Source: Alphaproteobacteria bacterium (GTDB lineage Bacteria; Pseudomonadota; Alphaproteobacteria; Rs-D84; SZUA-605). From it: DNA of 64,000 nt. The position numbers and the translations under genes were made by a program. The notes beneath the pieces were generated by a model. That model saw only the letters and a list, made by a program, of their open reading frames with translations. It had not been told where the DNA came from and made no database searches. The DNA lies in NCBI GenBank assembly GCA_031549385.1, contig JAVBPW010000001.1, positions 224,001-288,000 of the forward strand, read 5' to 3'. Positions 31,245-51,174 of the stretch are shown here, piece by piece (within the stretch, counting starts at the first letter, position 1; each line of letters begins with the position of its first letter).

Positions 31245-31293
31245 CCGGCTTTTAGTCGGTTTTTTATTTTTATAAGTCTTTGTTTTATGAGTC
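31245..31293 (+). repeat. Oriented intergenic module (copy 1; also a terminator hairpin)
   Basis: CCGGCTTTT...TAAGTCTTTGTTTTATGAGTC. Confidence 0.85.
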
Positions 31294-31296
31294 TTA

Positions 31297-32343
31297 TTAG
31301 TACATTGTTGTGAAGATATCTTTTAAATTTTTCATATTATCCAAAGCTTCACCTGTTCCACGCGCTACACATGTTAGAGGATCTTCTGCAACAAACACTG
31401 GAAGACCTGTTGATTTACGAATAGCAGAATCAAGTCTTGTTAATAATGCTCCACCACCTGTTAAAACTATACCACGATCAACGATATCTGATGCAACTTC
31501 TGGAGGAGTTGTTTCAAGAGCTACTTTTATAGCATCAATAATTTGATTCACTGAATCTTGCAATGCTGATGCCATTTCTGTTTCTGTTACTTTGATTTCT
31601 ACTGGAACTCCGTTTATTAAACTTCTTCCTTTGATTTCAATTACTTTTTGATTATCTGAATTTTCTGGAGCAACTGCACATCCAATTTCTTTTTTAATAT
31701 TTTCTGCTGTTGTTTCTCCAATTAATACATTGTGTTTTCTTCTGATAAAATTTATTATAGCTTGATCAAGTTTATCTCCACCAACTCTTACTGATTTAGA
31801 ATATACTATTCCACCTAATGATAACACAGCAATTTCTGTTGTACCACCACCAATGTCTACTACCATTGATCCTGATGGTTCTTGAATTGGAAGTTTTGCA
31901 CCTATCGCTGCTGCAACTGGTTCTTCGATTAAATATACTTGTCTTGCTCCTGCTACTTCAGCTGATTCTTGAATAGCACGACGTTCAACTGCTGTTGCAC
32001 CTGATGGTACACAGATAACAATTAATGGTGCTACTATCTTTGTTTGACCTTTTACTTTTTTAATGAAGTATTTTATCATTTCTTCTGCTACTTCAAAATC
32101 TGCAATAACCCCGTCTCTTAAAGGACGAATTGCTTGAATATTTCCTGGAGTTCTGCCTAACATTCTTTTTGCTTCTTCACCAACTGCTACAATTTTTTTC
32201 TTTCCACTTGGTTCTGTTAATATAGCAACTACAGATGGTTCGTTTAAAACTACACCTTTATCTTTTATATAAAAAATTGTGTTTGCTGTACCTAAATCGA
32301 TTGCTATGTTAAATGAAAAAGTTTTTTTCAAAAATTCAAACAT
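31297..32343 (-). CDS. mreB: Rod shape-determining actin homolog
   Basis: [35 protein letters not shown]. Confidence 0.98.
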
Positions 32344-32345
32344 TA

Positions 32346-33224
32346 TTAAACTCCTTTTATAAGATGATGGTATATAATCTCTTTTAATTTTTCAACAGAA
32401 TTAATCTTAATTACTATTTCGTAATTACCCATCTTCTTATGATTAATTTTTACCGGCATTTTATAGTAACTTGTTAAGTCCCCCTCCATCTTTAATAACT
32501 CTTTATCTTTGTCTGAAAGTGGCTTGGACATATTTGCCTGGTTTTCCTTTATAGCAGACACATCTTTTACTGTCAAGTTCTGCTTTTGAAGGAGTTCTTT
32601 TACTTTTTCGAGATCTGGCATTGATACTATTGTTCTTGCCAATGATGGTGATATTTCTTTGTTCTTTAGTTTTTCTTTTATATCATCTGGTAATTTTAAT
32701 AATCTTAATAGGTTTGTTATATAGCTTCTGGATTTTCCTAGCATTTGAGCTATTTGTTCATGTGAATAACTATAGGTATCAATAAGAGAGTTTAATCCAT
32801 TTGCGGTATCAATTGCATTCATATCTTCACGTTGAAGATTTTCTATTAATGCAATTACCATTACTTCTTTATCTGATAAATCTTTTATGATTGCTGGAAT
32901 AGTATCTAGTCCTGCTAAATCTGCTGCACGGTAACGACGTTCACCTGCTACTATTTGAAATAAATTTGCTGCCCCTGGTTTGCGACGTACTATGATTGGT
33001 TGTAAAACTCCGTTTTCTTTTATTGATAATGCGAGTTCTTCTAATTCTTGAGTTGAATAACTTGTTCGTGGCTGATTAGGATTTGCTTCTATGTTTGATA
33101 TAGGAACTATACTTACATTATTATTTTTACCACTGTTAAAAAATGAAGAAAAAACTGAAGGAGCACCTTCATCTTCTTTCATTAAATCATATAATCCTTT
33201 TCCTAATCCTTTTTTGTTAGTCAT
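32346..33224 (-). CDS. parB: Chromosome partitioning protein
   Basis: [47 protein letters not shown]. Confidence 0.97.
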
Positions 33225-48248: not shown

Positions 48249-48542
48249 ATGAAAGAGACTGTATTAAAGGCAGTTGCACAGCCACCACAATTTTTTAAAG
48301 CACCTTATAGATTAGCTATTTTTAATATTTTATTTCATGTAGCTCTTATGTGTGTTGTGCTTGTTGTGGTTTCTATTGTTAATCCTTTATTTTTTATTGT
48401 TAGTGGTTTTTTAGTTCATTTTTATTTAATATATCTTTATAAAAAAGAACCTCATATTGATAATATTTTGAAAAATATAAAAATTGTACTTAGATCTACT
48501 AATAATTTAGATGGTGAAAATGTAAAAAAGTATTTTAATTAA
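48249..48542 (+). CDS. virB3: VirB3-like type IV secretion inner-membrane protein
   Basis: LKAVAQPPQFFKAP then two TMs and KEPH; directly upstream of VirB4; ATG 48249 with GGAG RBS. Confidence 0.75.
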   Translation: MKETVLKAVAQPPQFFKAPYRLAIFNILFHVALMCVVLVVVSIVNPLFFIVSGFLVHFYLIYLYKKEPHIDNILKNIKIVLRSTNNLDGENVKKYFN

Positions 48543-48553
48543 GAGGATGTAGC

Positions 48554-51028
48554 TTGTTTGATTTTGTTTTAGATTTTTTTAATTTTGAATTGAATTTTAA
48601 AAGTATTGTGCTTTTTATTGTAGCTATATTTTCTTTTTCACTGTTTTTACTTATTTTTGTTAGAAAGTTTGTTGATAAAATTTTACCAACTGTAAATGAA
48701 ACACGTTTAAAAGATTTTTTGCCTTTCTTGGGTGTTGATCAGGATAAAAAAACTATTCTTTGTAATGATAATACATATGTTCGTGTTTTTTTAGTTGATG
48801 GACTTAATATGATACTTGTGTCTGATAAAGAAAAACAACTTTATTTAGATGTTAGAAAAAAATTTATAGAATCTTTAGATAGTGAAAGTGTTAGTACTAA
48901 ATTTGTTACTTTAAGACAAAAAATTTCTCAAGATACTACAACTGATCATACTAATTTTGTTTTAAAGAAAATTAATGATAAGTGGAATGAAAAAATGAGA
49001 ACTATTTATTCCAATAAATATTATGTAGTTGTTTCTGTTAAAGATGTTGTTAAAAAGAATGCTTTGCAAAAGTTAAATGAAGTAGAACAAATTTTATTAA
49101 CTACTCTTTCTCCATTTAGTCCAAAAGTATTATTACAACAAAATGATTTGAATAAAGATTCTTTGTTGGATGTTTATTCTTATATGGCGTCACCTATTAG
49201 CCGACCTAATATTCGTGGAGATGTTAGTATGGCTTCTATTAATGAGTTAGTTTCTGGAGATGAAGTTGTTTTCAATAAAAATGGTGTTATAGAATTTAGA
49301 TCAGGTGAGAAAAAAAGATATATGACTGTTATAGGTCTTAAAAGAGTACCTGATTATATTGATGAACAAATGTATTCTGATTTAATGACACTTGATTATG
49401 AAATGATTTTCTTAAAATCTTTAAAAGTTTATCCTAATTTAAAAGGAGCAGCGGTTCTTAATTCTCAAAAACGAATTGATCTTTCTACTAATTTTTCTTC
49501 TGAAGTGGAAGGACAATATGATTATGCTATTGATGAACTTAATGATATTGCTGAAAAATCTCAAAAGTTGGTTGATTTTGGAGAAGCTATTTATTTATAT
49601 TCTGATAATTTGCAAGAATTGGAAAAAGGTGTGGAAGATGTATTTAAAGTTCTTAGACTTTATATGGCAACACCTGCTCGTGAAACTTGGGTTGCTCAGA
49701 TTTCATGGTTCTGCTTATTTCCATCTTATGATATAGTACCACGTGTATATAAATTATTATCACGTGCTGTTGCTTGTTCTTTAGTTTTTGAAAGAGTACC
49801 AACTGGATTTATGGGTAATGATTGGGGTGATGGATGTATTTCTATGTTCCCAACTGCTAATGGAACTAATTATAGATTCCAATTCCATATTTCATCTGCG
49901 CCTGCTGCCGTTGCTCACTCTGTTGTTATTGGACCAACTGGTATTGGTAAAACTACACTTTATGCTTTCTTGTGTGGGGCTGCTATGAGATATCCTAAAC
50001 TTAAAGCTTATTTCTTTGATAGAAATAGAGGTATTGAAATCTTTACTAATGCTGTTGGTGGATCTTATCTAACTTTCGTTAGTGGAAAAACTAAAGATAT
50101 TGATTATGGAAAACAAACTTATATGAATCCTTTGAAACTTCCAGATTCACCAGAAAATAGACAGTTTTTAAGACAATGGTTAAAAGCTATTACTTATATG
50201 GATACTCAAGATTATATAAAAGAAGAAGCTGGGGTTGAAGAAGAAATAGCACGCGCTGTATCTGTTGTTTATGATTATTTAGATTATGATTTAAGATCTT
50301 TGAAGAATATCTATAAATCATGTTTTAATCCTAAAGGAATTGTAAGACAAGAAATTAAACGTTGGGTAGATGATGAACAATATGGAATGCTGTTTAATTC
50401 TCCAGTTGATAATTTAGACCTTTCATCTCAATTAACATCTTTTGATTTTACTAATATTTTTGAAGATCCAAAATTAGCACCAGCTATTATTTCATATATT
50501 ATGAATCAGATTAATAATATTTCTACACGAACAGGGGATCCGTCACTTGTTGTAATTGATGAAACTGCACCTATGTTGGAAAATCCTATGTTTAGAAGTA
50601 ATTTCATTATTGGATTACAAGAGGGTAGAAAGAAAAGACAAGCTTATATGGCTGCATTTCAACAACCTAATATTATCGATAAATTAGGAGTAGGGGAAGC
50701 AATCAGAGGTCAATGCCAAACAGTGATATTCTTTAAAAATCCACAAGCAACCTCACAAGATTATGCAGGTTGGAATTTAAATGAAAAAGAAATGGCATTT
50801 ATAGCAGGTAAACTTTATCCAGAACTAAGATATGCTATTTTGATAAAACGACCATTCATAAATGAATCAGTAATTCTAAATATAGATCTTTCATTTGAAG
50901 GACAATATTTGAAGATTTTTGATAGTGGAAGAAAGTCTGTAGTGTTGGCTGATGAGATTCTCAAGAAGATGGGGGCTGGGGCAGCTGGAACAGAGAAGTA
51001 CTTTAACGAGTTATTAAAATCATTATAG
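48554..51028 (+). CDS. virB4: VirB4-family type IV secretion ATPase
   Basis: Y.FQFH....AHSVVIGPTGIGKTT (Walker A), FDRNRG.EIF..A.GG.Y, VIDE (Walker B), EGRKK. Confidence 0.92.
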   Translation: MFDFVLDFFNFELNFKSIVLFIVAIFSFSLFLLIFVRKFVDKILPTVNETRLKDFLPFLGVDQDKKTILCNDNTYVRVFLVDGLNMILVSDKEKQLYLDVRKKFIESLDSESVSTKFVTLRQKISQDTTTDHTNFVLKKINDKWNEKMRTIYSNKYYVVVSVKDVVKKNALQKLNEVEQILLTTLSPFSPKVLLQQNDLNKDSLLDVYSYMASPISRPNIRGDVSMASINELVSGDEVVFNKNGVIEFRSGEKKRYMTVIGLKRVPDYIDEQMYSDLMTLDYEMIFLKSLKVYPNLKGAAVLNSQKRIDLSTNFSSEVEGQYDYAIDELNDIAEKSQKLVDFGEAIYLYSDNLQELEKGVEDVFKVLRLYMATPARETWVAQISWFCLFPSYDIVPRVYKLLSRAVACSLVFERVPTGFMGNDWGDGCISMFPTANGTNYRFQFHISSAPAAVAHSVVIGPTGIGKTTLYAFLCGAAMRYPKLKAYFFDRNRGIEIFTNAVGGSYLTFVSGKTKDIDYGKQTYMNPLKLPDSPENRQFLRQWLKAITYMDTQDYIKEEAGVEEEIARAVSVVYDYLDYDLRSLKNIYKSCFNPKGIVRQEIKRWVDDEQYGMLFNSPVDNLDLSSQLTSFDFTNIFEDPKLAPAIISYIMNQINNISTRTGDPSLVVIDETAPMLENPMFRSNFIIGLQEGRKKRQAYMAAFQQPNIIDKLGVGEAIRGQCQTVIFFKNPQATSQDYAGWNLNEKEMAFIAGKLYPELRYAILIKRPFINESVILNIDLSFEGQYLKIFDSGRKSVVLADEILKKMGAGAAGTEKYFNELLKSL

Positions 51029-51114
51029 TTTTGGGCACATTGAAAATGGGTTGCAAATAACATTTTCACCTCATTTTGAATGGCCGCAGATATGTTTTAT
51101 GAAAATTAAAAAAG

Positions 51115-51174
51115 ACGGTGTTTGGTGAGATTTTTATATCTATAACTCTCTGTTTTTGGATTCTAATTTGACTC
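51115..51174 (+). repeat. Oriented intergenic module (copy 8, degenerate ACGGT head)
   Basis: TAACTCTCTGTTTTTGGATTCTAATTTGACTC. Confidence 0.75.

Follow-up and report, generated by a model that had tools for sequence, protein, structure and literature searches.

Why does a short intergenic sequence recur eight times, always in one orientation, around the parS sites of a small alphaproteobacterial genome? The stretch analysed here (the window) comprises 64,000 nucleotides, C7:224001-288000, of a 931-kb assembly in 8 contigs that has 30% G+C and is rated 97% complete. A sequence-only reading of this DNA had described a polar intergenic module made of CCGGC, a T-tract, a box resembling the IHF consensus and GANTC, the site of CcrM, and had taken it either for an oriented, methylation-sensitive array of chromosome-organization sites near the origin or for a domesticated element akin to repetitive extragenic palindromes (REPs) or miniature inverted-repeat transposable elements (MITEs). 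The explanation that we favour, with a probability of roughly 0.55, is a lineage-specific, non-coding intergenic repeat of the REP/bacterial interspersed mosaic element 1 (BIME-1; RIB) kind, copied locally and represented by eight copies and one diverged candidate; no special origin function was shown.

The eight copies were found with TAA at exactly the positions previously given, and in every one of them GANTC starts exactly 16 nt past TAA, as had been claimed (GAGTC once, GATTC five times and GAATC twice; Table 1). CCGGC, reported 27-29 nt ahead of TAA in six copies, was verified in those six with starts at 28, 29, 27, 28, 29 and 29 nt; it is absent from c40040 and degenerate in c51143. The additional GACTC, 11 nt past the first GANTC start, is likewise present in the three copies for which it had been noted (c40040, c40131 and c51143). 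All eight copies lie on the + strand in mixed +/− gene contexts, in agreement with the single, gene-independent orientation described earlier.

Table 1. The eight copies of the intergenic unit, each named after the position of its TAA in the window, with nhmmer E values, folding energies (kcal/mol) and z-scores
Copy	Subfamily	Coordinates	Strand	E value	Gene setting	Structure	Energy	z
c31273	A	31242..31307	+	9.3e-12	between convergent secB (+) and mreB (−)	CCGGC/GTCGG hairpin intact between A- and T-tracts; followed by TATAAG, TTGTTTTATGAGTC	−13.5	−4.5
c40040	B	40026..40073	+	6.7e-7	divergent xerD/truB gap	right half only, second GACTC; on the left a different, AU-rich hairpin overlapping the xerD promoter-like site (− strand)	−10.3	−4.05
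c40131	B	40100..40164	+	7.2e-12	upstream of truB, 91 nt after c40040	CCGGC retained, no hairpin, second GACTC		−0.98
c43765	most divergent copy	43735..43799	+	3.2e-11	starts 20 nt past the pnp stop codon	perfect GCCGGC hairpin of the order's generic terminator type	−22.8	−7.9
c45206	B	45176..45234	+	1.4e-10	between mscL (+) and ycxB-like (+)	CCGGC retained, 3' arm lost, no hairpin		−1.0
c45761	A	45730..45795	+	1.5e-13	between convergent ycxB-like (+) and dnaQ-like (−)	intact hairpin; stop codon of the − strand gene in the last block	−10.4	−4.2
c48164	A	48135..48198	+	1.6e-9	upstream of virB3, exactly between divergent promoter-like sites with −35 boxes at 48122-48117 (−) and 48196 (+)	no hairpin		+0.2
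c51143	B	51112..51176	+	2.6e-11	between virB4 (+) and metG (+)	left arm degenerate (GACGG), no hairpin, second GACTC		+0.75

Searches of the whole 931-kb assembly showed that the unit is neither spread at background frequency nor present in both orientations. The composite pattern CCGGC-N22-24-TAA-N13-GANTC occurs six times forward and never in reverse, and an nhmmer profile of the eight copies recovered those eight only, all on the + strand (E 1.5e-13 to 6.7e-7), the next match being an ordinary CCGG-stem terminator (E 0.021). With up to three mismatches, a 23-mer of c45761 has three matches in the window against none in 100 shuffles. Leave-one-out scores of the right half by position weight matrix ranged from 13.1 to 36.0 bits, whereas five simulated genomes reached at most 14.1-18.8 bits; the weakest copy, c43765 (13.1 bits), is not significant from the right half alone. 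A looser pattern, TAA-N4-TTG-N6-GANTC, was found 13 times forward and once in reverse in the genome, seven of these being family copies, while the reversed-sequence control gave four.

No further copies were found within the window left of 31 kb or right of 51.3 kb, as the sequence-only reading had stated. Outside it, a single diverged right-half box scored above the simulated-genome null (C7:353925-353980, match at C7:353947, + strand, 22.1 bits); this candidate ninth copy, at a distance of 78 kb on the right, follows a different G+C-rich hairpin, stands upstream of tRNA-Trp, secE, nusG and rplKAJL, and has three GANTC sites within about 80 nt. Two near-identical stretches near contig ends, at C6:27576 and C7:453088, combine a GAATC...GACTC pair with a T-run and belong to a different repeat, which possibly flanks an unassembled repeated region.

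These results refute both a fortuitous likeness among AT-rich intergenic sequences and an error of assembly. At 30% G+C, T-tracts and terminators would look alike anyway; however, the observed scores were unreached in shuffles and simulated genomes, nhmmer E values went down to 1e-13, and the composite pattern is wholly one-sided. Furthermore, an independent assembly of sequencing run X1, possibly from the same sample, reproduced the stretch with 0 differences.

The conserved stretch, about 65 nt long, begins some 32 nt ahead of TAA, ends some 34 nt past it and has sharp borders beyond which the flanks are unrelated. Its left half is a terminator-type hairpin followed by a T-tract, and its right half, which reads TATAA-N4-TTGTTTTTKGANTC-WWATTT, holds a near-consensus IHF box and GANTC. 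Self-BLAST and alignments separated two interleaved subfamilies, A and B, with c43765 outside both. Members of subfamily A agree at about 82-90% of positions over 50-78 nt in spite of the 2.4-17 kb that separate them and the subfamily B copies in between, which indicates shared ancestry rather than convergence. Position-specific constraint was not in excess of a uniform-rate model, either in the variance across 44 ungapped columns (P 0.33) or in the number of invariant columns of the eight-copy alignment (16 compared with 15.6 expected).

The CCGG-stem hairpins of c31273, c43765 and c45761 fold well (z −4.2 to −7.9) and, as G+C-rich stem-loops followed by a T-tract, have the form of intrinsic terminators; c40131, c45206, c48164 and c51143 lack this form and do not fold significantly (z about −1 or above). 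The earlier count of only three terminator hairpins therefore stands for the CCGG stems, to which c40040 adds a fold of another kind, its AU-rich stem, so that four of the eight copies fold significantly (z −4.05 to −7.9). About five other CCGG-stem terminators with A-/T-tracts occur in this genome without the right half, and a relative from the same order, G013, uses the CCGG-stem terminator in both orientations; the combination of CCGG stem and A-/T-tracts is a generic terminator form of the order. The left half of c31273, c43765 and c45761, with its A-tract, CCGG stem and T-tract, thus resembles a bidirectional intrinsic (Rho-independent) terminator, whereas the unit as a whole differs from one in having 45 more conserved nucleotides past the T-tract and four copies that cannot fold. 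A structured RNA was rejected: RNAalifold placed 0 consensus pairs on the eight copies, and Rfam at gathering thresholds matched only seven tRNAs in the window and nothing at the elements.

All eight copies occupy gaps between genes. Five begin 1-83 nt past the end of a + strand gene (secB, pnp, mscL, ycxB-like and virB4), and three lie in divergent promoter gaps, namely the tandem pair between xerD and truB and one copy between the ORF98 and virB3 promoter-like sites. In the convergent secB/mreB and ycxB/dnaQ-like pairs the unit fills the entire gap, with the stop codon of the − strand gene inside its last block. An integron attC array was considered and rejected: XerD is the best-scoring assignment of the neighbouring recombinase (325.6 bits against an equivalog cut-off of 329.6, compared with 143.5 bits against a cut-off of 265 for the integron-integrase model), and the genes separating the copies are housekeeping genes.

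On the − strand, the right half matches the IHF consensus WATCAANNNNTTR with one mismatch in seven copies and two mismatches in the eighth, in a fixed register, while matches with at most one mismatch occur at 0.24% of intergenic positions; as the copies are homologous, these are not eight independent events. Proteins resembling HU, IHF-alpha and IHF-beta are encoded once each, the two IHF matches scoring below the equivalog cut-offs, and the box proposed by the sequence-only reading is thus borne out as a predicted IHF-like site. Its identification of GANTC as a CcrM site is legitimate as well: the motif is present in all eight copies and a CcrM homologue is encoded (E 1.6e-147 to the solved Caulobacter CcrM, 6pbd; 586 bits to NF050803, under the 830-bit cut-off), from which methylation is predicted. 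Together with an encoded GcrA homologue, the CcrM and IHF-like genes make the functional readings offered earlier possible. GANTC is not enriched in intergenic DNA, being mildly depleted everywhere (observed/expected 0.73 in coding and 0.77 in intergenic sequence), and besides the 11 sites inside the eight units about 1,880 exist in the rest of the genome.

The closest known counterpart is the BIME-1/RIB (RIP) class of Escherichia coli. According to the sections of PMC3333891 that deal with these elements, REPs are established as terminators and IHF-binding sites at the 3' ends of transcription units, BIME-1 linkers contain an IHF site, and RIBs lie at the 3' ends of transcription units. Set beside that account, both kinds of element are short, non-coding and strictly extragenic, often directly after a stop codon; both pair a G+C-rich hairpin with an IHF-consensus box; and both are able to terminate, here by prediction. 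The differences are equally plain. BIME-1 consists of an inverted REP pair, whereas a single hairpin is present here and is lost in half of the copies; BIME-1/RIB elements number in the hundreds and are dispersed genome-wide, whereas 8-9 copies occur here, in 20 kb and in one direction. The present family, unlike BIME-1/RIB, has no GTAG-type tag, no gene for a REP-associated tyrosine transposase (RAYT) and no sequence similarity, and it alone carries GANTC in the conserved core. Judged as a REP proper, the unit is extragenic and in five of eight copies lies 1-83 nt past a + strand stop codon, while the stem-loop, in REPs an imperfect palindrome of 20-40 nt, folds significantly in four copies and not in the other four; its eight copies in 20 kb, with one weak candidate, fall short of high-copy dispersal; and a search for the RAYT family PF01797 (E up to 0.1) drew a blank in the 97%-complete assembly, the unassembled 3% lying outside the search. 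Low copy number, clustering, one-way orientation, loss of the palindrome and the missing RAYT thus place the unit outside REPs in the strict sense, and its likeness to REP/BIME-1 is one of apparent working and location. Of the earlier suggestion of a REP/MITE-like element, the REP/BIME-like half fits best.

This origin would proceed as follows. The left part would be an order-typical bidirectional intrinsic terminator with A-tract, CCGG-type stem and T-tract, and the right part an A/T-rich box comprising, on the − strand, a putative near-consensus IHF site, followed by TTGTTTTTKGANTC and WWATTT. One such terminator-plus-box unit would have spread to nearby gaps between genes over about 20 kb through some local copying process, which may be gene conversion or template switching (no transposase was found), and copies would have persisted only where harmless. 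The hairpin would still terminate transcription at sites where the end of a + strand gene meets another gene (c31273, c43765 and c45761), and would have decayed where read-through or a promoter is needed, that is, from mscL to ycxB, from virB4 to metG, and upstream of truB and virB3. By analogy with the IHF site of BIME-1 linkers, the right half would most likely be bound by a bending nucleoid protein (IHF/HU), with a CcrM-methylatable GANTC alongside. Termination, protein binding, methylation and the mode of spread are all inferred in this account.

Local copying is also consistent with what the rest of the genome contains. Self-BLAST clustering revealed several repeat families, among them a sequence-unrelated hairpin family of about 60 nt, for which a profile search found 12 loci, 12/12 on the + strand, confined to an 88-kb interval (C7:99948-187968) about 70-155 kb from parS and set in +/−, −/− and −/+ gene contexts. 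A third family, of long hairpins of roughly 130 nt, is mostly co-oriented. Both resemble the parS-region family in being lineage-specific, intergenic, co-oriented (the ~130-nt family mostly so), regionally confined and independent of gene direction, and differ from it in their unrelated sequences, larger intervals and lack of GANTC and of a T-tract terminator. Since the 60-nt family is equally co-oriented and confined, polarity and clustering are general to the repeats of this genome rather than peculiar to the neighbourhood of parS. If the units are a repeat family only, the finding is of descriptive value: a reduced symbiont genome of 0.93 Mb holds at least three short intergenic repeat families without a recognizable transposase, and two of them, the parS-region and 60-nt families, are each strictly co-oriented and confined to a region, which bears on how repeats spread and persist in small genomes. 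If the right half is a working site that responds to both IHF binding and methylation, it would be a small natural model of how CcrM methylation and the bending of DNA act together near a partition site.

Several observations weigh against a repeat of this kind. With 8-9 copies, the family is far below the numbers of classical REPs, half of its copies are not palindromic, and all eight are confined to the interval from −6.3 to +13.5 kb around parS. In this AT-rich genome, the three rare G/C positions of the core (G in TTG, G and C in GANTC) are invariant in 8/8 copies, while 11/45 changes fall in the 5 nt that separate TAA from TTG, where 5.1 are expected (P 0.01, post hoc); the combination hints, again post hoc, at the pattern of a two-part protein site. 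Three copies keep the CCGGC 5' arm intact after losing the 3' arm, and in these, by eye, post hoc and assuming a hairpin ancestor, 0/15 positions of the 5' arm and about 9/15 of the 3' arm have changed, which hints that CCGGC is preserved as sequence rather than as structure. Finally, Y1 transposase (PF01797, E up to 0.1), MobA/MobL and TrwC gave no match in the 97%-complete assembly, and with no mobilizing enzyme, no terminal inverted repeats and no target-site duplications the spread is left unexplained.

In an alternative that we regard as unlikely, the units form an oriented array of architectural protein sites of a parS- or origin-proximal domain. IHF would bend the site and join CCGGC and GANTC, about 44 nt apart, for a second, possibly methylation-sensing factor, and the array would shape the partition-complex zone or modulate initiation, loosely like the datA/DARS loci of E. 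coli, which are IHF-dependent. The proximity of all copies to the two parS sites, with only one weak candidate elsewhere in 931 kb, is consistent with such an array, as are the single orientation whatever the direction of neighbouring genes, the fixed register of the IHF box, the invariance of GA-TC around a variable middle base (G, T or A), the CCGGC retained in three copies without a pairing partner, the encoded CcrM, GcrA and IHF-like proteins, and the local minimum of cumulative GC skew near 36-40 kb with a steady rise from there. However, co-orientation and confinement are shared by the unrelated 60-nt family far from parS, position-specific constraint is not in excess, the candidate ninth copy is 78 kb distant, and no comparable array was found near parB of 11 relatives, a weak test with ParB at most 46% identical. 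Moreover, dnaA lies on another contig, hemE was not found and the skew has several minima, so that the origin is not located. The oriented, methylation-sensitive array proposed earlier therefore keeps its proximity to parS and its candidate proteins, while GANTC enrichment, excess constraint, a GcrA-type context in more than two copies (by the contexts treated in PMC4647560) and a polarity special to this region all failed to appear. That the array works as a methylation-sensitive architectural device around parS is accordingly unlikely to quite improbable. A more specific version strikes us as improbable, in which the eight units are working polar nucleoprotein sites, each bent by IHF so that a second factor reads CCGGC and the GANTC box jointly, and in which the complex is switched by the methylation state of GANTC, hemimethylated between the firing of the nearby origin and the synthesis of CcrM; it would amount to an oriented, replication-timed mark over about 20 kb around the partition site, and the other confined, co-oriented families of the genome could then mark other chromosome regions.

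Quite unlikely, too, is a cis-regulatory role as an operator or upstream activator site, possibly dependent on GcrA and CcrM, for rightward promoters of truB-rpsO-pnp, ycxB, virB3-virB4 and metG and, at the outlying copy, of tRNA-Trp-secE-nusG. A + strand gene or tRNA starts 39-160 nt past GANTC in five of the eight copies and at the candidate ninth, subfamily B has a second GANTC box one helical turn on, which in three copies reads TTGACT, a −35-like hexamer, and GcrA and CcrM are encoded. On the other hand, the genes ahead of c31273 and c45761 are on the − strand and turn their 3' ends towards the unit, and ahead of c43765 stands an unsupported − strand open reading frame (ORF), the next + strand gene (tRNA-Glu) being about 365 nt downstream. 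The distance to real promoter-like sites differs among copies, promoter-like hits in the region do not exceed chance (89 compared with 103.6 in shuffles), and the downstream genes form no coherent regulon. In the passages of PMC4647560 on sequence contexts, Caulobacter GcrA prefers methylated YGAKTCK; contexts of the GGATTCT type resemble those ranked low there. Measured against those passages, the units share with Caulobacter GcrA/CcrM promoters, where methylated YGAKTCK stands beside sigma-70 elements, a GANTC in 8/8 copies and the encoded CcrM and GcrA homologues; they differ in that YGAKTCK fits only two of the eight first sites (TGAGTCT and TGATTCT), that other contexts are of the GGATTCT type, and that no hexamers stand at fixed spacing.

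The individual promoter types were rejected one by one. For a rightward sigma-70 promoter, no −10 was seen by eye at a fixed distance from the TTG or GANTC box, nor was one seen in the other direction. A leftward sigma-70 promoter, with TATAAA-like and T(T/A)AGAA-like boxes at 16-nt spacing, is readable in all eight copies, yet it was rejected because the −35 TTG positions vary, the last −10 base is A, and the xerD and ORF98 promoter-like sites lie outside the element. A sigma-54 promoter fails on GG, present in only four of the eight copies, although these four have the TGG-N8-TTG spacing; Sigma54_DBD gave no match at E up to 0.1 and no rpoN is encoded. Boxes of the AAC type for an extracytoplasmic function (ECF) sigma factor and of the CTTG/CCCAT type for RpoH were not seen by eye; RpoD, RpoH and one ECF factor are the only sigma factors found in the genome. 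A weak DnaA box was likewise rejected, the TTTGGATTC stretch fitting the DnaA-box consensus at just 5-6/9 positions (by eye).

It is also rather improbable that the units are dead relics of a small mobile element whose single-stranded DNA was handled by an HUH-type enzyme (REP/RAYT- or IS200/IS605-like). Such a mechanism would account for a hairpin with a conserved, asymmetric 3' flank and for strict co-orientation independent of genes, features also seen in the 60-nt family, and IS200/IS605-type elements, in the section of PMC3333891 devoted to them, excise and insert preferentially on the lagging-strand template. Against it stand the failure to find Y1 transposase, MobA/MobL or TrwC relaxase in the assembly, the hairpin missing from half of the copies, the very low copy number, and a right half that follows three different hairpins (that of c40040, that at C7:353947 and the CCGG type). 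MITEs, among them the Correia elements of Neisseria with their IHF site, are likewise small, intergenic and discretely bordered; they differ in having terminal inverted repeats and target-site duplications, of which the units show neither. The longest shared end word was 2-4 nt and the longest flanking direct repeat 3-5 nt, at or below the null median of 4; the MITE half of the earlier proposal was accordingly rejected.

No whole copy of the family was found in the relatives, collection loci and viral contigs searched. In 40 relatives the 14-mer core with one mismatch occurred at control level, and no copy was found in 180 loci from genome and metagenome collections, where the best PNPase identity was 58%. 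Neighbourhoods of parB in 11 relatives had 0-10 short self-matches compared with 18 here and no similar array; the relatives are very distant, ParB being at most 46% identical, and the comparison is therefore weak. The nearest species genome (G001) belongs to the same family but to another genus; its ParB is 46% identical and its assembly has no pnp. Viral contigs gave six single matches to the pattern only and no whole element. Two metatranscriptome runs yielded RNA contigs over portions of truB/rpsO, pnp, ORF83 and virB4 but none over an element.

The copies had been said to bracket parS and a candidate oriC, and the first part holds: two parS sites lie within the array, at 37589 (one mismatch to the 16-mer consensus) and 37688 (perfect), one in each unit of a 57-nt direct repeat (37581-37637 and 37680-37736, 86% identical) situated between tRNA-Gln and an unannotated 249-aa ORF. 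With dnaA on contig C5 and hemE not found in the assembly, the origin was not located; in the cumulative GC skew, local minima fall at about 9 kb and at 36-40 kb of the window, and the curve climbs steadily beyond about 40 kb. The candidate oriC of the sequence-only reading may be the 274-nt AT-rich gap at 47494-47766, which contains facing DnaA-box-like words at 47713 (+) and 47728 (−) and a two-way hairpin at 47744-47761. The rpsO-pnp gap (41492-41559) has three DnaA-box-like 9-mers in 68 nt, each with one mismatch, and a fourth lies in pnp at 41818; this cluster, one of only two places on contig C7 with four such words per 500 nt, may be a candidate origin or a DnaA-titrating site.

The gene content (Tim44-like, SecB, MreB, ParAB, GidAB, VirB3/VirB4 and others) marks the organism, as judged from its predicted proteins, as a reduced alphaproteobacterium. 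The whole stretch is present in one DNA sequencing run only, an invertebrate-gut metagenome that may be its source. Two genes of the window lie 20 kb to the left of the array: one for the genome's only ECF-type sigma factor (9620-10168, 183 aa) and one for a histone-H1-like HC2 nucleoid protein (12096-12392, 99 aa). An 83-aa ORF at 44331-44582 (−) has no Pfam family and resembles a small membrane protein; an RNA contig of run X2 spans 44337-44605 over it with 0 differences. An identical small hairpin, (N)CAACTTGAAGTTG(N), follows three tRNA genes, in the 3' flanks of tRNA-Arg and tRNA-His (about 34233-34250 and 34374-34390) and at 44221-44235, and may be a shared processing or termination signal. 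At 40226-40249, a TATAAT box lies, by eye, about 7 nt before the likely truB ATG at 40247, a position that would suggest a leaderless mRNA or one with a very short leader.

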